From Squalus acanthias (lineage: Eukaryota): DNA of 64,000 bases. A model generated the notes under the pieces. The model was not told the DNA's origin and made no database searches. It was given only the letters and a program-made list of their open reading frames with translations. The first letter of the stretch is position 1. Every line of letters begins with the position of its first letter. Location: the NCBI GenBank assembly GCA_030390025.1, contig CM059432.1, positions 74,464,001 through 74,528,000 on the forward strand, written 5' to 3'. Of the stretch, positions 2,497 to 44,555 are shown piece after piece. Position numbers and translations under genes: made by a program.

Positions 2497-2814
2497 TCAG
2501 TATTAATTAGATTGTTTTCGCAGTCTGATATGAAGAAATAACATCGAAAAAGCCAGAAACACACATCAAGTAACTCAGTTCCTGAAGGAGAAAGAGAAAG
2601 ACAGGTTAATGTTTCAGGTGGAATCTATAATCAGAAGGGGTTTCTGGGAGACTAACAAAACACAGAATGGCGTTGGATATTCAGTTCAACATCAATACAA
2701 TCAAACATCACTGTCACTTTGAAACGGGTTAAGTTGGACCTTGGTAAGAAGAAACCTGTAACTGGTGTGAATTGAGATGTAGATCCTGTAACTGTTCCAC
2801 TTTCTTCACCATTT

Positions 2815-3100
2815 CCAGTTTGAGTTTAAATTAAATTAAAAAGCTGGTGTCCATAAAAGTGACTATGAAGCTGTCGGATTGCTTCAAAAACCCAACTGGT
2901 TCAATAATTTCCTTTAGGGAAGGAACCCTGATGCCCTTGCTTGTTCTGGCTTACATATGACTCCAGTCCCACAACAACCAAGTTGAATCATAACTGTCCT
3001 CTGAAGTGGACAATTTCAACTTCCCTTCTCAGGGAAACTAAGGATGGGCAATAAATGTCAGCCTTGCCAGCAATGCACACATCCCTAGAATGAATAAAAA
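2815..3100 (+). mobile_element. SINE sharing body and 3' tail with the LINE at 6716-9985
   Basis: 2838-3009 aligns to 6831-6999 and 3024-3100 aligns to 9903-9980. A-rich end. 5' boundary approximate. Confidence 0.8.
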
Positions 3101-3106
3101 CACAGT

Positions 3107-4210
3107 GGGCAGGATTTTAACTTGCAGGCAGGTAGGGAGCAGGGGTGGGGCGGGGGGTTGTGGGGGTGGGGGCGGGGGTGGCTGGATTGCGGTTGGGAAA
3201 CTAGGGAGAGTGATTTTCCCTCCAGCCCTGCCGAATTTAGCGGCAGGGACTGATTAAAATTTTTTTGATTGAGAGGCTGGCTGGCTGTCGGCAGGGTGGT
3301 CTGTGGCACCAAGCTGCAGCCAGGGAGCAGAGAAGAGGGAGGGAGGGATCGGAGGCTGGGTTTGGGGGGGGTGGGGGGGGGGGTCGGAAGACTGGGATCA
3401 GAGGGGTTGGAAGCCCATGATCGGTGGGGGAGGTTGGAGATCAAGGGGGTTGGAAAGCCGGGATTGAGGGGTGTTGGAGATTGGGGTGGGGGGGGGTATG
3501 TGTCAGACGGCCGGGATAGGAGGGGGTCAGAGATCGGGGTGGGGGTCAGAAGGCCAGCATTGATGGGCTGGAGGTGGAGGCGGGGACAGGGGATCGGAAG
3601 ACCAGGGGGCGCGGGTAGTTGGAGGCTGGAGATGGGGTTGGGGCTGGGGATCAGATGGCCGGACTGGGGGTCGGAGCCGAGGATCGGAAGGCCGGAGGGG
3701 TGTTGGGGTTGGGGGCCGGGGATCGGAAGGCTGGCGGGGGGTTTGGAGCCCCAGGATCGTAGGCCGGGGAGCAGAATGCCAGAGGGGGGATCGGAGGTCT
3801 CGTTGGGGGGGGTGGTTGGAGGCCTCGGGAGGGGAGGTCAGGGGGAGATTGGAAGGGTTGGGGGGGTGTCCGATCGTGGGGGGTTGGCGAGGCAGGGCGC
3901 TGGATCCAGCAGGTAAGTGGAGAGGCAATTACCTCCTGGATCCAGCAGTCCTCGCCTTCGTTTAGCTCCCGAGACCCGGACACCCAGCCGCCCAGAGTTA
4001 AATTTGAAAGGTAGATTCAAAATGAGGCACATAGCCTCATTATAATATTTAAAGCGCCAACCCACCTCCTGTCTGCCCGCCCCTGTCCCGCGTCCATTAA
4101 AACCGGAAGTAGGCGGGTTGAGGTCGGGATTCAGATTTCTACTTTAACCTCACACCCATCCCAAGCCCGCCCATTTTTTGGGGTTAAAATCCCGCCCCCC
4201 TGCCACCCCC
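3107..4210. mobile_element. Non-autonomous Harbinger-type element (MITE) with G-rich interior
   Basis: TIRs GGGCAGGATTTTAAC and GTTAAAATCCCGCCC (ends 4197). AGT at 3104-3106 and 4211-4213, with a short C-rich extra segment at the right end. Confidence 0.65.
3340..3900 (+). repeat. G-rich degenerate tandem array (GGGATCGGAAG-type units)
   Basis: Repeated GGGGATCGGAAG(N)CCGG-like motifs separated by G runs; strong strand bias. Confidence 0.8.
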
Positions 4211-6426: not shown

Positions 6427-6716
6427 CCCCACCATAATATACTTTTTCCCCAGTGAAAACTATTTTAGTTCTCTGCATTTCTCCTCATAACTTAGAGCCT
6501 CAAGACCTAGAACCATTTTTGCTACTCTTGTCCAATATATCAAGGTGGAAAGCACAACATTGCAAGTAATATTTACAGGATTAAAATAATTTGTTTTTAG
6601 CTTTATTTAAATACCTTCGAAACACATCCACATACTTGATAAGCCCTGATACGAGCAGCTTTATAATCACTAGACAATTTCAGTAAATAGTCAATAATCT
6701 CATCCCTCTGGCTTTG

Positions 6717-6787
6717 GGGCATAGTGGTTATGTTACTGGACTAGTAATCCAGAGGCCTGAACTAATGATCCAGAGAGTTCAAATCCC
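6717..6787 (+). promoter_or_regulatory. tRNA-derived Pol III internal promoter (A box, B box)
   Basis: A-box-like GGCATAGTGG; anticodon stem-loop CTGGA-CTAGTAA-TCCAG (6736-6752, AGT anticodon); B box GAGTTCAAATCCC (6775-6787). Confidence 0.75.
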
Positions 6788-7079
6788 ACCATGGGGAATT
6801 TAAATTCAGTTAATTAAATAAATCTGGAATAAAAAGCTAGTATCAGTAATGGTGACCATGAAACTATTGGATTGTCGTAAAAACCCATCTGGTTCACTAA
6901 TGTTCTTTAGGGAAGGAAATCTGCCATCCTTATATCTGGCCTATATGTGACTCCAGACCCACAGCAATGTGGTTGACTCTTAACAGCCCTCTGAAATGGC
7001 CTGGCAAGCCACTCAGTTATATATAACCGCTACGAAAAACAATAATAAGAATAAAACCAGATGACCACCCGGCACGACC

Positions 7080-9869
7080 TTGGCACCAGCTTCGGACACG
7101 ACAACGGTATATCCAGCCCATCGACACTGCAAAGTCCTCCTCACTAACATCTGGGGATTTGTGCCAAAATTGGGAGAGCTGTCCCACAGACTAGTCAAGC
7201 AACAGCCTGACATATTCATACTCACAGAATCATACCTTTCAGTCAATGTCCCAGACTCCTCCATCACCATCCCTAGGTATGTCCTGTCCCACTGGCAGGA
7301 CAGACCCACCAGAGGTAGAGGCACAGTGGTATACAGTCGGGAGGGAGTGGCCCTGGGAGTCCTCAACATTGACTCCGGACCCCATGAAGTCTCTTGGCTT
7401 CAGGTCAAGCATGGGCAAGGAAATCACCTGCTGATTACCACCTACCGCCCTCCCTCAGCTGATGAATTGATATTCCTCCATGTTGAACACCACTTGGAAG
7501 AAGCACTGAAGGTAGCAAGGGCACAGAAGGTGGAGGACTTCAATGTCCATCACCAAGAGTGGCTCGGTAGCACCACTACTGACTGAGCTGGCTAAGTCCT
7601 GAAGGACATAACTGCCAGACTGGGCCTGTGGCAGGTGGTGAGAGAACCAACATGAGGGAAAAACCTTCTTGACCTCGTCCTCACCGCAGATGCATTTGTC
7701 CATGACAGCATTGGTAGCAGTGACCACCGCACAGTCCTTGTGGAGATAAAGTCCTGTCTTCACGCTGAGGACACCGTCCATCGTGTTGTGTGGCACTACC
7801 ATCGTACTAAATGGGATAGATTCTGAACAGATCTGGCAGCTCAAAACTGGGCATCCATGAGGCGCTGTGGGCCATCAGCAGCAGCAGAACTGTATTCCAC
7901 CACAATCTGTAACCTCATGGCCCGGCATAGCCCTCACTCTACCATTATCATCAAGCCAGGGGACCAACCCTGGTTCAATAAGGAGTGTGGAAGAGCATGC
8001 CAGGAGCAGCACCAGGCGTACCTAAAAATGAGGTGCCAACCTGGGGAAGCTGCAACACAGGACTATATGCATGCTAAACAATGGAAGCAGCATACTAAAG
8101 ACAGAGCTAAGCGATCCCACAATCAACGGATCAAATCAAAGCTCTGCAGCCCTGCCACATCCAGTTGTGAATGGTGGTGGACAATTAAACGAGAGGAGGA
8201 GGCTCCATGAATATCGTCATCCTCAATGATGGTGGAGCCCAGCACGTGACTGCAAAAGACAAAGCTGAAGCGTTTGCAACCATCTTCCCCCAAAAGTGCT
8301 AAGTGGATGATCCATATCGGCCTCCTCCTGAGGTCCCCACCATCACAGAAGACAGTCTTCAGCCAATTCAAGTCACTCCACGTGATATCAAGAAACAACT
8401 GAGCGCACTAGATACGGCAAAGGCTATGGGCCCCGACAACATCCCGGCTATCGTGCTGAAGACTTGTGCTCCAGAGCTAGCCGTACCTCTAGCCAAGCTG
8501 TTCCAGTGCATCCACAACACTGGCATCTACCCGACAATGTGGAAAACTACCCAGGTATGTCCTGTCCACAAAAAGCAGGACAAATCTAATCCCACCCACT
8601 ACCGCCCCATCAGTCTACTCTCAATCATCACCAAAGTGATGGAAGGTGTCGTTGACAGTGATATCAAGCGCCACTTACTCACCAATAACCTGCTCACCAA
8701 TGTTCAGTTTGGATTCCGGCAGGGCCACAGGGCTCCAAACCTTATTACAGCGTTGGTCCAAACATGGACAAAAGAGCTAAATTTCAGAGGTGAGGTGAGA
8801 ATGACTGCCCTTAACATCAAGACAGCATATGACCGAGTGTGGCATCAAGGAGCCCTAGTAAAATTGAAGTCAATGGGAATCAGGGGAAAACTCTCCACTG
8901 GCTGGAGTCATACCTAACACAAAGGAAGATGGTTGTGGTTGTTGGAGATCAATCAACTCAACCCCAGGACATCACTGCAGGATTTCCTCAGGGCAGTGTC
9001 CTAGGCCCAACCATCTTCAGCTGCTTCATCAATGACCTTCCCTCCAGCATAAGGTCAGAAGTGGGGATGTTTGCTGATGATGACACAGTGTTGAGTTCCA
9101 TTCGCAACTCCTCAGATAATGAAGCAGTCCATGCCCGCATGCAGCAAGACCTGGACGACATTCGGACTTGGACTGATAAGTGACAAATAACATTCGCGCT
9201 GCACAAGTGCCAGGCAATGACTATCTCCAACAAGCGAGCGCCTAACCACTGCCCCTTGACAGTTAACAGCATTACAATCGCCGAATCCCCCACCATCAAC
9301 ATCCTGGGGGTCGGCATTGACCAGAAACTTAACTGGACCAGCCACATAAATACTGTGGCAACAAGTGCTGGTCAGAGGCTGGGTATTCTGTGGCGAGTGT
9401 CGCGCCTTCTGATTCCCCAAAGCCTTTCCACCATCTAACCATCTACAAGGCACAAGTCAGGAGTGTGATGGAATACTCTCCACTTGCTTGGATGAGTGCA
9501 GCTCCAACAACACTGAAGAAGCTCGACACCATCCAAGACAAAGCAGTCCGCTTGATTGGCACCCCATCCACCACCTTGAAAATTCACTCCCTCCACCACC
9601 AGCGCACCGTGGCTGCAGTGTGTACCATCTACAAGATGCACTGCAGCAACTCGCCAAGGCTTCTTTGGCAGCACCTCCCAAACCCGCGACCTCTACCACC
9701 TAGAAGGATAAGGGCAGCAGACGCATGGGAACACCATCACCTGCAAGTTCCCTTCCATGTTACACACCATCCTGACTTGGAAATATATAGCCGTTCCTTC
9801 ATCGTTGCTGGGTCAAAATCGTGGAACTCCCTGCCTAACAGCACTATGGGAGTACCTTCACCACATTGA
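7080..9869 (+). pseudogene. APE endonuclease-reverse transcriptase (frameshifted)
   Basis: [69 protein letters not shown]; several stops and frameshifts. Confidence 0.92.
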
Positions 9870-10865
9870 CTGCAGGGGTTCAAGAAGGTGGCTCACCACC
9901 ACCTTCTCAAGGGCAATTAGGGATGGGCAATAAATACTGGCCTTCCCAGAGACACCCACATCCCAGGAACGAATAATAAAAAAATAATTTCCTATTATAA
10001 TTGAGAGCAATTCATTGTGTACCTATGTTTCATGCTGCTCCAGTATGTATTACCTCACATTTATCCATACTAAACTCCATCTATTCTGCTTTAGCCTATC
10101 CACTAAATTCATACAGATCCTTTTGCATGCTAGCACATTACACTAGTTACTTGGTCACGTAACTTGATATCATCTTTATATATCATTTATGACTACTATA
10201 ACCAGGAGGACACATTAAGAACCAGAACAGATTTGATGGAATCCATCATCACTGCCCCAGGATGAAATTTCTTTTGTTAATAAATACATATCTAGAGTTT
10301 GCTGAAGAATCATTTCTTTCTGGAGTATGGCCACAGAAAAACTCTCAATGTAATTTGATTTTCATTGTCACCAAATTAAACTACAGGTTTCTTGCAATTG
10401 TGTTTTTTTGCTATCAGTCAACCACATTCTGGAAGTCAAGTTTGTAAATGTTCTGAAGGTTATAGCAGTAAGGAAAAAGTTGATAGGTCTCAGCAATCAG
10501 GCTCAGGAATAAAAATAAATAATTCTTAGAATATTACTTTTGTCTCTCTTCTCACCTTCCTGCCTATTCTCTCTTTAATGCCCCCATTCCTTCTTTCCTA
10601 TACATTTGTTGTTTGCTCAGACTTGTTTGAACAGATGGTTTACTGCAGGTGCAGTGAACCTTTACAAAAAGAAATCACACTTAGGAGTTAGAAACTGTTG
10701 TAGAGATGCTGCAGGATTAAACTGCCCAGCTATCATTTTAATTTATTTTATTTACCAATTTTTTGTACTGTTAGCTTGCAGTTGTAGCAAATGAAATCCT
10801 TATGCAAGGCAGAATGGTTTACTATGATGGTAAAAGGATGCATTTTTCTTGTAAGAAAATTGTAT

Positions 10866-17847: not shown

Positions 17848-17966
17848 CACTGTGAGCAAGTGTTGTGAGAAGAAGCCTTTAATAAGAATGAAGGTGTTCT
17901 CCACTTGCCCCAACACTCCCTGTTACCTTAGGACCTTGAAAGAAGTTTATAATGCTGCTGGAGTTT

Positions 17967-18088
17967 ATTTTTATTCGTTTATGGGATGTGGGCGTCGCTG
18001 GCAAGGCCAGCATTTATTGCCCATCCCTAAATGCCCTTGAGAAGGTGGTGGTGAGCCGCCTTCTTGAACCGCTGAAGTCCGTGTGGTG
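17967..18088 (-). mobile_element. 5'-truncated copy of the tRNA-headed LINE tail
   Basis: Reverse complement of 9860-9980. Confidence 0.85.
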
Positions 18089-35524: not shown

Positions 35525-38440
35525 CAGCAAGTGACTTCTAAAAGGCCAAAACTAAAGGCTCTGCATCTGAATGCACGTAGCATTCGAAACAAAACAGATG
35601 AACTGATAGCACAAATAGAAATAAATAAATATGATCTGATAGCCATTACAGAAACATGGCTGCAGGATGACACAGATATTGAAGGGTACATGACATTTAG
35701 GAAGGACAGGAAGGTGGGAAAAGGTGGAGGAGTGGCTCTGTTAATTAATGATGGTATTAGCACAATAGAGAGGGATGACCTAAGTTCAGGAAACCAGGAT
35801 GTAGAAGCGGTTTGGGTAGAGATGAGAAATAATAAAGGCAAGAAGTCACTTGTGGGAGTGGTGTACAGGCCCCCTAACAGTAACCACATGGTAGGATGGA
35901 GTATAAAGGAAGAAATAATGGGAGCTTGTCAGAAGGGTACGGCAATAATCATGGGGGATTTTAATCTGCATATAGACTGGAAAAATCAGATGGGCAAAGG
36001 TAGCATAGATGAGGAGTTCATGGAATGTTTTCGGGATAGTTTCTTACAACAGCGCATTCTGGAGCCAACCAGAGAGCAGGCTATACTAGACCTGGTATTG
36101 TGCAACGAGATAGGATTAATTAATGACCTCATAGTGAAGGCGCCCCTAGGTAGCAGTGATCATCATATGATTGAATTTTACATTCAGTTTGAGAGAGAGA
36201 AGATTGGGTCCAAGACTAGTATTTTAAACTTAAATAAGGGCAATTATGAGGGCATGAAAGCAGAGCTAGCTAAAGTGCACTGGCAAATTAGGTTAAGGGA
36301 TAGGTCAATAGAGTTGCAGTGGCAGACATTTAAGGGGATATTTCAAAATACACAGAATATATACATTCCAACAAGAAAGAAAAATTCCAAGGGGAGGACC
36401 CACCATCCGTGGTTAACTAAAAAAGTTAAAGATAGTATTAAACTTAAAGAAAAAGCATATAATTGCGCAAAGATGGGTGGCAGGTCAGAAGATTGGACAG
36501 AATATAAAAAACAGCAAAGAATGTCTAAAAGATTAATAAGGAGAGAAAAATTAGAGTACGAGAGAAAGCTAGCTAGAAACATAAAAACAGATAGTAAGAG
36601 TTTCTATAGATATTTTAAAAAGAAAAGAGTTAACAAAGTGAGCGTTGGTCCTATAAAAAGTGAGTCTGGGGAATTAATAATGGAAAATAAGGAGATGGCA
36701 GTTGAATTGAACAGGTATTTTGCATCGGTCTTCACTATAGAGGATACAAGTAACATCCCAGAAATAGCTGTAAATCAGGAAATGGAAGGGAGGGAGGAAC
36801 TCAAGAAAATTATAATCACCAGGGAAATGGTACTGAGCAAATTGTTGGAGCTGCGGGCTGACAAGTCTCCGAGTCCTGATGGACTTCATCCTAGGGTCTT
36901 AAAAGAAGTGGCTAGTGAGATAGTTGATGCGTTGGTTTTAATTTTCCAAAATTCCCTAGATTCGGGGAAGGTTCCATTAGATTGGAAAATAGCGAATGTA
37001 ACTCCTTTATTCAAAAAGGGAGGAAGACAGAAAGCAGGAAACTACAGGCCAGTTAGCTTAACATCTGTCATAGGGAAGATGTTAGAAGCTATTATTAAAG
37101 ACATTATAGCAGGGCACTTGGAAATGTTCAAAGTAATCAAGCAGAGTCAACATGGTTTTGTGCAAGGGAAATCATGTTTAACCAGTTTATTGGAGTTCTT
37201 TGAGGAAGTAACATGTGCTGTGGATAAAGGGGAACCGGTGGATGTACTGTACTTCGATTTCCAGAAGGCATTTGATAAGGTGCCACATCAAAGGTTATTG
37301 CGGAAAATAAAAGTTCATGGTGTAGGGGGTAACATATTGGCATGGATAGAAGATTGGCTAGCTAACAGGAAACAGAGAGTAGGCATAAATGGGTCATTTT
37401 CTGATTGGCAAGATGTAACGAGTGGTGTGCCACAGGGATCAGTGCTGGGGCCTCAACTTTTTACAATTTATATAAATGACTTGGATGAAGGGACCGAAGG
37501 TATGGTTGCTAAATTTGCTGATGACACAAAGATAGGTAGGAAAGTAAATTGTGAAGAGGACATAAGGAAACTACAAAGGGATATAGATAGGTTAAGTGAG
37601 TGGGCAAAGATCTGGCAAATGGAGTATAATGTGGAAAAATGTGAAGTTGTCCATTTTGGCAGGAAGAATAAAAAAGAAGCATATTATCTAAATGGTGAGA
37701 GATTGCAGAGCTCTGAGATGCATAGGGATCTGGGTGTCCTAGTGCATGAATCGCAAAAGGTTACTATGCAGGTACAGCAAGTAATTAGGAAAGCTAATAG
37801 AATGTTATCGTTTATTGTGAGGGGAATTGAATACAAAAGTAGGGAGGTTATGCTTCAGTTATACAGGGCATTGGTGAGACCACATCTGGAGAACTGTGTA
37901 CAGTATTGGTCTCCTTATTTAGGGAAGGATGTAAATGCATTGGAAGCAGTTCAGAGAAGGTTTACTAGACTAATACCTGGAATGGGCGGGTTGTCTTATG
38001 AGGAAAGGTTGGACAGGCTAGGCTTGTATCTGCTGGAGTTTAGAAGAGTAAGAGGTGACTTGATTGAAACATATAAGATCCTGAGGGGTCTGGACAGGGT
38101 GGATGTGGAGAGAATGTTTCCTCTTGTGGGAGAATCTAGAATTAGGGGTCACTGTTTAAAAATAAGGGGTCGCCCATTTAAGACAGAGATGAGGAGACAT
38201 TTTTTCTCACAGAGGGTCGTGAGTCTTTGGAACTCTCTTCCTCAGAGGGCGGTGGAAGCAGAGTCTTTGAATATTTTTAAGGCAGAGGTAGATAGATTCT
38301 TGGTAAGCAAAGGGGTGAAAAGTTATCGGGGGTAGGCGGGAATGTGGAGTAATCGGATCAGCCATGATCTTATTGAATGGCGGAGCAGGCTCGAAGGGCC
38401 GAGTGGCCTACTCCTGCTCCTAATTCATATGTTCGTATGT
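35525..38440 (+). mobile_element. CR1 LINE, 5'-truncated just upstream of ORF2
   Basis: Full EN-RT frame plus 3' UTR GGAGCAGGCTCGAAGGGCCGAGTGGCCTACTCCTGCTCC and (TATGTTC)-type tail. Confidence 0.95.
35531..38335 (+). CDS. CR1 ORF2: APE endonuclease + reverse transcriptase (uninterrupted 934 codons, GTG start)
   Basis: [50 protein letters not shown]; no stops. Confidence 0.9.
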   Translation: MTSKRPKLKALHLNARSIRNKTDELIAQIEINKYDLIAITETWLQDDTDIEGYMTFRKDRKVGKGGGVALLINDGISTIERDDLSSGNQDVEAVWVEMRNNKGKKSLVGVVYRPPNSNHMVGWSIKEEIMGACQKGTAIIMGDFNLHIDWKNQMGKGSIDEEFMECFRDSFLQQRILEPTREQAILDLVLCNEIGLINDLIVKAPLGSSDHHMIEFYIQFEREKIGSKTSILNLNKGNYEGMKAELAKVHWQIRLRDRSIELQWQTFKGIFQNTQNIYIPTRKKNSKGRTHHPWLTKKVKDSIKLKEKAYNCAKMGGRSEDWTEYKKQQRMSKRLIRREKLEYERKLARNIKTDSKSFYRYFKKKRVNKVSVGPIKSESGELIMENKEMAVELNRYFASVFTIEDTSNIPEIAVNQEMEGREELKKIIITREMVLSKLLELRADKSPSPDGLHPRVLKEVASEIVDALVLIFQNSLDSGKVPLDWKIANVTPLFKKGGRQKAGNYRPVSLTSVIGKMLEAIIKDIIAGHLEMFKVIKQSQHGFVQGKSCLTSLLEFFEEVTCAVDKGEPVDVLYFDFQKAFDKVPHQRLLRKIKVHGVGGNILAWIEDWLANRKQRVGINGSFSDWQDVTSGVPQGSVLGPQLFTIYINDLDEGTEGMVAKFADDTKIGRKVNCEEDIRKLQRDIDRLSEWAKIWQMEYNVEKCEVVHFGRKNKKEAYYLNGERLQSSEMHRDLGVLVHESQKVTMQVQQVIRKANRMLSFIVRGIEYKSREVMLQLYRALVRPHLENCVQYWSPYLGKDVNALEAVQRRFTRLIPGMGGLSYEERLDRLGLYLLEFRRVRGDLIETYKILRGLDRVDVERMFPLVGESRIRGHCLKIRGRPFKTEMRRHFFSQRVVSLWNSLPQRAVEAESLNIFKAEVDRFLVSKGVKSYRG

Positions 38441-43149: not shown

Positions 43150-44555
43150 CATCTCCAGCATTAGCTTCTCTTCCTGCCCCCATACCATTACCTCTGGAGA
43201 CCCACAAGGATCTATTTTTGGCCCCCTCCTATTTCTCATCTACATGCTACCCCTTGGCAACATAATCTGAAGACATGGGTTCAGCTTCCACATGTACGCT
43301 GATGATACCCAGCTTTATCCCTCCATCACCTCTCTCGACCCTTCAACTGCCACTGTATTGTCAGCCTACTTGTCTGACATCCAGTCCTGGATGAGCTGCA
43401 ATTTCCTCCAGTTAAACACTGGGAAGACCAAAGCCATCGTCTTTGGCCCCCACCACAAACTCTGTACCCATGCCACTGATTCTATCCCCCCCTCCCCGGC
43501 CACTGTCTTGGATTCAACCCTTGGTGTCCCATTTGACCCTAAGCTGAGATTCCAACTCCCTTATCTCCTCCATCACAAAGGTCGCTACTTCCACCTCAGT
43601 AACATTAAAAAAATGAATTCTCGGGATATGGGTGTCAATAGCAAGGCCAGCATTTATTGCCCATCCCTATTTTCCCTTGAGAAGGTGATGGTGAGTTTTC
43701 TTCTTGAACCGCTGCAGTCCGTGTGGTGAAGGTATTTCCAAAGTGCTGGTAGGTAGGGGTTCCAGGATTTTGACCAGCGACGATGAAGGATCGATGATAT
43801 ATGTTCAAGTCGGGATGGTGTGAATGGACAGGAACTTGAAGGTGATGGTGTTCCCATGGACCTTCTTCCCTTCTCCTTTTAGGTAGTGTAGGACACAGGT
43901 TTGATAGGTGCTGTCAAAGAAGCCTTGATGAGTTGCTACCATGCATCCTGTGGATTGTACACACTGCAGCCATGGTCTGCTGGTAGTGGAGGGAGCGGAT
44001 GTTTCAGGTGGTGGATGGGCTGCCGATTGCCCACCTGTCTCTGCCTGAGCCCAGCTGCTACTGAAACTCTCATCTATGCCTTTGTCATCTCCAGACGCGA
44101 CTATTCCAATGCTCTCCTGGCCGGCCTCCCATCCTCTGTACTCCGTAAACTTTAGCTTATTCAAAATTGTGCTGCCTGTATTCTATCCCGCACCAAGTCC
44201 TGCTCACTTATCCTTGCTGACCTATATTGTCTCTCGGACCCCCAATGCTTCCAATATAAAATTCTCATCCTCATGTTTAAATCCCTTCATGGCCTTGGCC
44301 CCCTCCTTTCACTCAACCAGTGGCAGCAGTGCCTTCAGCTGTCTTGGTTCCACGTGTTGTAATTCCCTCACTAAACCCCTCCATTTATCCACCCCTCTCT
44401 CCTCTTTTAGGACCCTCCTTAAAACCCACCTCTTTCACCAAGCTTTTGGCCACACCTCCAAATACCTCCTTCTTTGGCTTGTTGTCCATTTTTGTGAAGT
44501 GTCTTGGAATGTTTTTCTCCGTTAAAGGTGCCAAATGAATGCAAATTATTGTTGT
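43150..44555 (+). mobile_element. L2 LINE fragment (RT to 3' tail)
   Basis: PQGSIFGPLLFLIY, YADDTQLY, ETLIYAFVISRRDYSNALLAG; L2 tail ..GTTAAAGGTGC..AATGCAAATTATTGTTG. Confidence 0.9.
43606..44035 (-). mobile_element. 5'-truncated copy of the tRNA-headed LINE inside L2
   Basis: Reverse complement of ~9545-9975. Confidence 0.85.

Follow-up and report, generated by a model that had tools for sequence, protein, structure and literature searches.

A Zenon retrotransposon of Squalus acanthias with a tRNA-derived head: a candidate protein-coding element transcribed by RNA polymerase III

The stretch analyzed here, a window of 64,000 nucleotides of Squalus acanthias DNA (assembly GCA_030390025.1, contig CM059432.1, positions 74,464,001 to 74,528,000), carries on its forward strand, at 6719-9985, a near-full-length, decayed copy of a Zenon long interspersed nuclear element (LINE), whose family length is about 3,314 nt. 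A tRNA-derived head opens the element and is followed by a conserved non-coding body and by one open reading frame (ORF) that encodes an endonuclease (EN) and a reverse transcriptase (RT) and has no ATG before EN (Table 1). [quoted passage not shown] In other words, Zenon may be a protein-coding retrotransposon made by Pol III. The window copy itself is dead: it bears 7 in-frame stops and 11 indels, diverges by 6.8% from a consensus of 38 copies, shows no clear target-site duplication (TSD), and in Pfam RT alone passed. The family's first 10 nt are missing from it, which clips the A box at its first two bases. The original prediction, made from the letters of the window, had the element start at 6716 with an A box, an anticodon stem-loop and a B box; the anticodon-like arm (6736-6752) and the B box (6775-6786) stand, while the A box is the clipped one and the start moves to 6719. 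Its striking count of T-runs survives as well, since the sense strand between 6716 and 9985 holds 0 runs of at least four T (T4) and 18 of at least four A (17 without the tail), and TTTT first recurs at 10121; no other T4-free stretch of the window is as long as the one around the copy, which spans about 3.5 kb, the runner-up measuring 1.6 kb. Against the Rfam tRNA model the head scores weakly in this copy (16.5 bits, E 1.8) and better in copy L099 (22.3 bits, E 0.04), and ARAGORN reported no tRNA gene in the window head.

Table 1. Parts of the Zenon copy, in positions of the window
Feature	Position	Strand	Basis
Zenon LINE copy	6719..9985	+	copy alignment, 38-copy consensus, start matched to published consensus
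A box position, clipped; family form fits TRGCNNAGTGG	6717..6727	+	motif pattern
tRNA anticodon-like arm, 5-bp stem and 7-nt loop	6736..6752	+	Rfam tRNA match, folding
Extra arm where a tRNA has its variable region, nearly repeating the anticodon arm with period 21	6757..6773	+	sequence; other consensuses by eye
B box / T-loop	6775..6786	+	motif pattern
Conserved non-coding body, common to short head-and-tail derivatives; several predicted hairpins	6790..7018	+	
Terminal body hairpin; its 7-nt loop is anticodon-like, with AGC at the centre in the family and A replaced by G here	6991..7016	+	
In-frame ATG inside the terminal hairpin; in the family, TAG one codon later	6996-6998	+	
GCT codon, in frame, that complements the loop centre; putative P-site codon	7029..7031	+	kept in 5 published consensuses
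Single ORF without ATG before EN; 7 stops and several frameshifts here	7032..9920	+	
ORF layout: Arg-rich leader, apurinic/apyrimidinic (APE) endonuclease, RT, C-terminal region	EN ~7135-7750; RT ~8570-9180	+	
AATAAA polyadenylation signal, short 3' UTR	9929..9934	+	
3' end: GAA, T-run (a single T in this copy, 1-11 T in others), short A-tail	9971..9985	+	

Its sequence identifies the family as the Zenon LINE, of the CR1 group, that Stuart et al. (2026, PMC13343379) described from elasmobranchs. Namely, over its first 400 nt, the part of each published consensus that our comparison with Supplementary Table 2 covers, SquAca_Zenon-1 is by eye nearly identical to our 38-copy consensus, and both are 3,314 nt long. 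That paper reports Zenon from five elasmobranchs, in all cases without ORF1, with poly-A tails and so far absent from repeat databases. By eye, the SquAca, CarCar, RhiTyp, ScyCan and HypSab_Zenon consensuses (dogfish, white shark, whale shark, catshark and stingray) all start with a tRNA-like head, with an A box in 5/5 and a clear B box in 4/5. In the paper's text and searchable supplement the word "tRNA" occurs 0 times and polymerase III goes unmentioned, and a literature search, with Repbase, Dfam and most subscription papers outside it, found no description of a Pol III-driven autonomous LINE or of a tRNA head on Zenon; a whale shark genome preprint (10.1101/443036), in its accessible part, only names a CR1-Zenon-like LINE, and PMC3747384 and PMC1845163 describe other shark pairs of a LINE and a short interspersed nuclear element (SINE). 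The family, its missing ORF1 and its A-tail are, in other words, already known, and the tRNA-like head appears to have gone unremarked. Unlike elasmobranch Zenon, the hagfish and coelacanth members (PMC13343379) have starts that are not tRNA-like by eye, the 5' UTRs of lepidopteran Zenon and Persaeus lack tRNA homology (PMC6740152), and several invertebrate relatives have an ATG before EN. ARAGORN, run on 27 of 160 fetched loci of distant relatives, found no tRNA head in any, a weak test, since it missed the dogfish head as well. The nearest proteins are 35-47% identical and often about 935 aa long on contigs of 3-4 kb, with named members in amphioxus, sponge and shrimp. Viral contigs yielded neither a relative of the ORF nor the body motif, and four viral matches to a short pattern, spanning 15 nt only, were judged to be chance. 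As an aside, many records of prokaryote metagenome-assembled genomes among the relatives (L241-L320) contain LINE ORFs of animal type that are intact, which amounts to host contamination.

Does the head belong to the family, or is it a neighbor by accident? A SINE lying by chance in front of a LINE truncated at its 5' end, or a non-autonomous element moved by another LINE, would look similar in a single copy, and this rival can point to the short forms, which are common, and to sequencing-run contigs in which head and body are far commoner than the head-ORF junction. We searched the 3.7-Gb dogfish assembly with two queries. With head plus EN, the best 40 of 12,422 candidates were scored, and were therefore selected for the junction, which all 39 of the 39 other scored matches span; with the head alone, 29 loci were fetched, of which 25 proceed into the ORF and 4 jump to the 3' tail. 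Together with the head at the start of the five published consensuses, the head-only result makes the head a part of the family, as had been proposed. What is more, 70 examined loci, most of them fetched for matching the head, gave 38 near-full-length copies, whose consensus of 3,314 nt carries the junction that the original prediction had suggested looking for genome-wide and that recurs in dozens of loci. The 5' end is sharp: 20/38 of these copies begin at consensus base 1 or 2 with unrelated flanks. The A box pattern is present in 27/32 and the B box in 24/32 of the copies reaching those sites. No consistent TSD was found among the near-full-length copies, the longest matches being mostly 0-5 nt. 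The same junction in dozens of loci and in five species, an intact consensus ORF under purifying selection (below), and short forms that have many junctions and in several cases keep the first ORF codons, as deletion products would, leave the rival extremely improbable; the common junction and the selection on the ORF already refute it. By this sequence evidence the head-bearing architecture is real, family-wide and conserved across elasmobranchs, and head, body, AUG-less EN-RT frame and A-tail are shown to move as one unit.

Three observations concern the head and the 5' parts in their own right. The extra arm at 6757-6773 forms a hairpin in dogfish, and in the consensuses of three other sharks it has, by eye, a different stem sequence, hinting that the shape of the RNA, beyond the DNA promoter, matters. 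Copies L009, L012, L032, L046, L047 and L060 have inverted 5' parts resembling the outcome of twin priming. Finally, a search across copies for misincorporation at A58 of the T-loop, which would point to modification as in tRNAs, found none.

The 38-copy consensus holds one stop-to-stop frame of 973 codons with EN and RT behind a 5' UTR of about 330 nt, and no ORF1, as had been noticed in the window and is published for Zenon (PMC13343379). This frame contains no ATG from the upstream stop until well past EN, which bears out for the family the lack of an in-frame ATG seen in the window; the stop at 7062-7064, used earlier as a landmark, is a mutation private to the window copy. The better copies retain both domains in Pfam (PF03372, PF14529, PF00078). 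Non-CpG variants present in at least 8/38 copies have a ratio of nonsynonymous to synonymous changes (N/S) of 22/38, as opposed to 993/381 among singletons (Fisher p=3.8e-8). On this ground the EN-RT frame is under purifying selection in head-bearing source elements, which therefore needed their own protein, and the element is autonomous, as the original prediction had it.

In the short forms, the head and body end at consensus positions 332-355 and are joined to tails that start at 3172-3230. Because their junctions are many and different, and several retain the ORF's first codons, they are, judging by sequence, mostly products of internal deletion. An older short family, roughly 78% identical, is also present; the element at 2780-3100 of the window, a body with a tail and about 78% identity to the young family, is one member of this large older set. 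Two further stretches on the reverse strand, 43623-44027 and 17964-18088, are 5'-truncated 3' fragments of the Zenon LINE with 82% and 89% identity to the window copy. Contigs from four public runs, which we guessed to be RNA, cover the element, with some 10-20 times more depth over the body than in the junction bin and with head-to-tail joints among them; transcript start, strand and cap are not readable from such contigs. Like a SINE2, the element has a tRNA-derived head with A and B boxes at its 5' end; the other marks of that class (short, non-coding, moved in trans) belong to the short derivatives and not to the 3.3-kb element.

Which polymerase would transcribe such an element? According to PMC10886601 LINEs are generally Pol II transcripts, and the main rival to our reading is a Pol II element which captured a SINE as its 5' UTR and is transcribed from a Pol II promoter in the head or body or by host read-through, with the A and B boxes kept by the short derivatives or by recombination and with an inherited poverty in T. 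Lepidopteran Zenon, whose 5' UTRs lack tRNA similarity and are assumed to carry the LINE promoter (PMC6740152), fits this rival, and an AATAAA with an A-tail is equally compatible with it. It accounts less readily for 5' ends at the very base where a tRNA-type promoter would start, for boxes retained across the published shark and ray consensuses, and for a capped RNA that would meet several upstream ATGs, yet no in-frame start.

The original prediction had seen in the missing T4 runs a selection on the whole EN-RT region to stay transcribable by Pol III, and had suggested codon shuffling as a control. The outcome is mixed. For the window copy, the P value of zero T4 is 0.006 when bases are shuffled, and 0.06 and 0.31 with dinucleotide (Markov 1) and trinucleotide (Markov 2) models, respectively; for the consensus ORF, codon shuffles that preserve the protein give P=0.11, and we dropped zero T4 as a stand-alone proof. 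Shorter and weaker signals are depleted in the same consensus ORF. Runs of three T (T3) number 5 where 11.1 are expected (codon shuffles, P=0.006), Phe is written TTT 3 and TTC 15 times, and at four-fold sites the third position is T before a codon starting with T in 3/44 cases, versus 74/313 otherwise. With weak Pol III terminator motifs defined as in PMC3141230, canonical and weak terminators together number 1, of the weakest type, versus 5.2 (P=0.015) or 8.7 (P<0.001) expected, while the element's antisense strand has 38 such motifs; the consensus has 0 T4 and 1 weak motif, the decayed window copy 7 weak motifs. Two control LINEs of the same genome show no depletion, namely the CR1 ORF2 (31 motifs, 13 T4) and the ORF of the L376 family, whose T content resembles that of the element (20.8% T; 21 motifs, 9 T4). 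The latter family, which we take to be L1/Tx1-like, counts as one control together with its copies L377, L379 and L380; L378 was dropped as a control, being a rearranged copy of the Zenon family (3 T4, 7 motifs). Among 105 related ORFs the TTT odds ratio has a median of 1.12 and a minimum of 0.51, versus 0.25 in the element.

That said, several points weigh against a purely selective interpretation. Codon-shuffle z-scores as low or lower occur among the relatives, in 11/105 for T4 and 4/105 for T3. The relative L241, whose 5' end is unseen, has 20% T and a single T4 within the ORF, and its 3' UTR contains T-runs. Phe makes up a median of 3.3% (minimum 2.1%) of the close proteins and 1.8% of the element's, i.e. 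the clade is poor in T and Phe as a whole; the loss of Phe was not used as a sign of selection, 9/19 mostly-Phe columns being kept, the same as for other residues. Moreover, these statistics set a majority consensus against single contigs of relatives from other, mostly AT-rich hosts. We conclude from the sequences that the depletion is real and Pol III-shaped, and that part of it may be inherited. Selection across the whole EN-RT region, in the sense of depletion beyond codon usage, is likely, with the T-poor and Phe-poor ancestry as a partial confounder. The weak terminators and the TT at codon junctions, depleted beyond codon usage here and not in the two control families, also tell against the Pol II rival, for which the lack of T4 and the T-poor L241 speak; we consider it unlikely, though a serious contender.

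Some observations on the comparison elements stand apart from this argument. The CR1 at 35531-38335 of the window, whose sense strand was described as rich in T-runs and has 14 T4 by our count, is young and canonical, with copies 94-97% alike and a family that has an upstream ORF1 of 320 aa and an ORF2 of 1,001 codons. The GC-rich family of L376-L380 has intact ORFs of up to 1,306 codons, some of its matches lying about 7 kb apart in tandem-like pairs. In L311 and L292, from unrelated hosts, LINE ORFs of about 29% T have few T4 (1 vs 8.5 and 4 vs 11.7 expected), and by sequence these could be further Pol III candidates.

The 3' end may be that of a Pol III transcript finishing in a T-run. We compiled 114 3' ends, nearly all with a short A-tail, and parsed 92 of them (a few loci possibly duplicates) as a GAA-type stem, a T-run and an A-tail after AATAAA. 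The T-run has length 0 in 2 ends, 1 in 51, 2 in 13, 3 in 11 and at least 4 in 15, so that 39/92 have two or more T at one fixed place before the A-tail. The sole recurrent T4 site is this last position (10/38 copies), versus 21 scattered interior runs in 122,740 nt. In T+ SINEs, according to PMC8466645, Pol III transcripts stop within such a T-run and are then polyadenylated. The match in layout supports the Pol III model by analogy, without proving it. On the other side of the balance, 51/92 ends have a single T, 22/114 ends are unparsed, and T-runs in tails are reported to lengthen with age after insertion, by slippage (PMC8466645).

How would the ORF be translated? The terminal hairpin of the body contains, in the frame of the ORF, ATG GCC TAG, usually followed by a TAA three codons before GCT, and no near-cognate start codon is conserved. 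From GCT onward the frame is kept by eye in the four other species despite a different spacer sequence, and upstream of GCT the whale shark consensus differs by 1 nt; among 72 copies, 17/22 length differences between GCT and EN, in an A-rich spacer whose AAT repeat favours such steps, are multiples of three. The SquAca consensuses are out of frame in this spacer, unlike real copies, and probably mix subfamilies. A second rival divides the labour: the RNA that serves as template for new copies is a Pol III product, and the protein is translated from another transcript, a capped one, which the same source loci yield by host read-through or through Pol II, with a start by reinitiation, by read-through of TAG after the in-frame ATG, or by a -1 shift from an overlapping upstream ORF. 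The in-frame ATG in good context, within the last hairpin and followed by TAG, suits this idea, as do the consensuses of three other species, where by eye nothing but this TAG stands between the in-frame ATG and the ORF, and an out-of-frame ATG just before EN in 30/75 copies and in four other species. Yet most dogfish copies carry the second in-frame stop, which disfavours read-through of ATG-GCC-TAG as a rule; both stops are present in 35/96 copies, and both are absent with the ATG intact in about 11, as independence predicts. Lineages without the out-of-frame ATG show purifying selection of their own (N/S 31/42, p=2.4e-7), and an obligatory start at that ATG was rejected. We regard divided labour as improbable.

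A separate observation touches the same hairpin. At window position 7002 (family position 309), the second base of the 7-nt loop, a non-CpG T is changed in 27/103 copies (to C in 14, G in 8 and A in 5), independently of subfamily markers, the median elsewhere being 2.7%; this T is also the first base of the TAG after the in-frame ATG. The pattern looks like misreading of a modified base by reverse transcriptase or a mutation hotspot of the hairpin.

If the RNA is made by Pol III, one tentative way to start is suggested by the hairpin itself. Its loop centre AGC is complementary to the GCT 11-12 nt downstream, a geometry like that of pseudoknot I (PKI) in the intergenic region (IGR) internal ribosome entry site (IRES) of dicistroviruses, and by analogy the start could be a pseudoknot between anticodon loop and codon, our first choice among mechanisms, which we hold to be possible but doubtful. 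With these type 6 IRESs (PMC13273307, PMC3517527) Zenon has in common an anticodon-like hairpin, an A-rich variable linker, a complementary codon directly before an AUG-less ORF, and a structured region of similar size; it differs in having 3-4 candidate pairs, versus five in cricket paralysis virus (CrPV), and a linker of 11-12 nt, versus 6-10 reported. In the accessible parts of these two papers no type 6 IRES is reported in a retrotransposon, and an IGR IRES with an authentic anticodon loop and three pairs has weak activity (PMC3517527). One pair of the hairpin stem varies, older copies having G-C, most young copies A-C and the ray A-U; the pseudoknot pairs are possible and mostly conserved. 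Several results speak against such a start: the three pseudoknot pairs show no covariation, the match of loop and codon was noticed post hoc and is expected about 4 times in 64 by chance, the hairpin's stability relative to shuffles is not unusual (z 0.41), and Rfam, in which newer subtypes may not be included, gave no IRES or ribozyme match, at E<=5 or at E<=10. PKII and the L1.1 motifs of the type 6 IRESs are not established in the Zenon body, and the element does not qualify as one of these IRESs.

Put together, the life cycle would run as follows. Source copies would be transcribed by Pol III from the first G, the polymerase reading through 3.3 kb cleared of terminators, both strong and weak, and stopping at the T-run at the extreme 3' end, after which AAUAAA would direct polyadenylation as in T+ SINEs. 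Translation of the uncapped RNA would need no AUG and would begin at most a few codons downstream of the body, at a start most likely set by the body's RNA structure; the protein would bind the 3' tail and insert copies by target-primed reverse transcription. Internal deletion gives rise to the short head-and-tail forms. That Pol III can yield translatable RNA is reported in PMC8223928, citing Gunnery and Mathews (1995); a rise in reporter output on removal of a TTTT is reported in PMC8223928 as well. Standing against the scheme is length: Pol III mobile elements usually measure 100-1,263 nt (PMC10886601), and 3.3 kb is far longer. In its complete form, as an elasmobranch SINE-LINE hybrid with a 3.3-kb Pol III coding RNA, its own T-run end, polyadenylation, a cap- and AUG-independent start by a tRNA-mimicking pseudoknot, and tRNA-SINEs spawned by deletion, the proposal is, on the sequences, distinctly unlikely to hold in every part.

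Among known systems, Zenon is by sequence a LINE of its family, and we infer by analogy that it works like a T+ SINE with an enzyme of its own. [quoted passage not shown] TRIMp3 elements (Cassandra, Helenus and Ajax; PMC10886601) are likewise non-SINE retroelements with Pol III promoters derived from small RNAs, but they are non-autonomous long terminal repeat (LTR) elements of 311-1,263 nt, whose autonomous partners the author expects to use Pol II. Head-and-tail forms made by internal deletion of a LINE are also known from Bov-tA and SINE2-1_ACar (PMC5786205, PMC4494074) and from short internally deleted elements (SIDEs) such as Persaeus (PMC6740152). In SINEs of the Bov-tA type, however, the tRNA head was added to a non-autonomous deletion product, whereas in Zenon the autonomous element itself carries the head, and therefore a single deletion is enough to make a SINE. 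R2 makes use of a borrowed rDNA promoter and of a ribozyme, where Zenon would carry its own internal Pol III promoter. R2 RNA is uncapped and translated without an AUG. This single-ORF LINE is co-transcribed with 28S rRNA (PMC4494074), and its RNA is not a normal Pol II mRNA.

In the standard view, Pol II transcribes the non-LTR retrotransposons and Pol III elements stay short, with processivity given as the reason (PMC10886601). If our reading is true, a coding LINE that is abundant, long-lived and controlled by a tRNA promoter would break the polymerase-based divide between LINEs and SINEs and would provide a natural Pol III mRNA; it would also let SINEs whose tails match those of a LINE arise in a single step. 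If, in addition, the pseudoknot start were true, elasmobranch genomes would encode a counterpart of the type 6 IRESs, the origin of which PMC13273307 describes as obscure.

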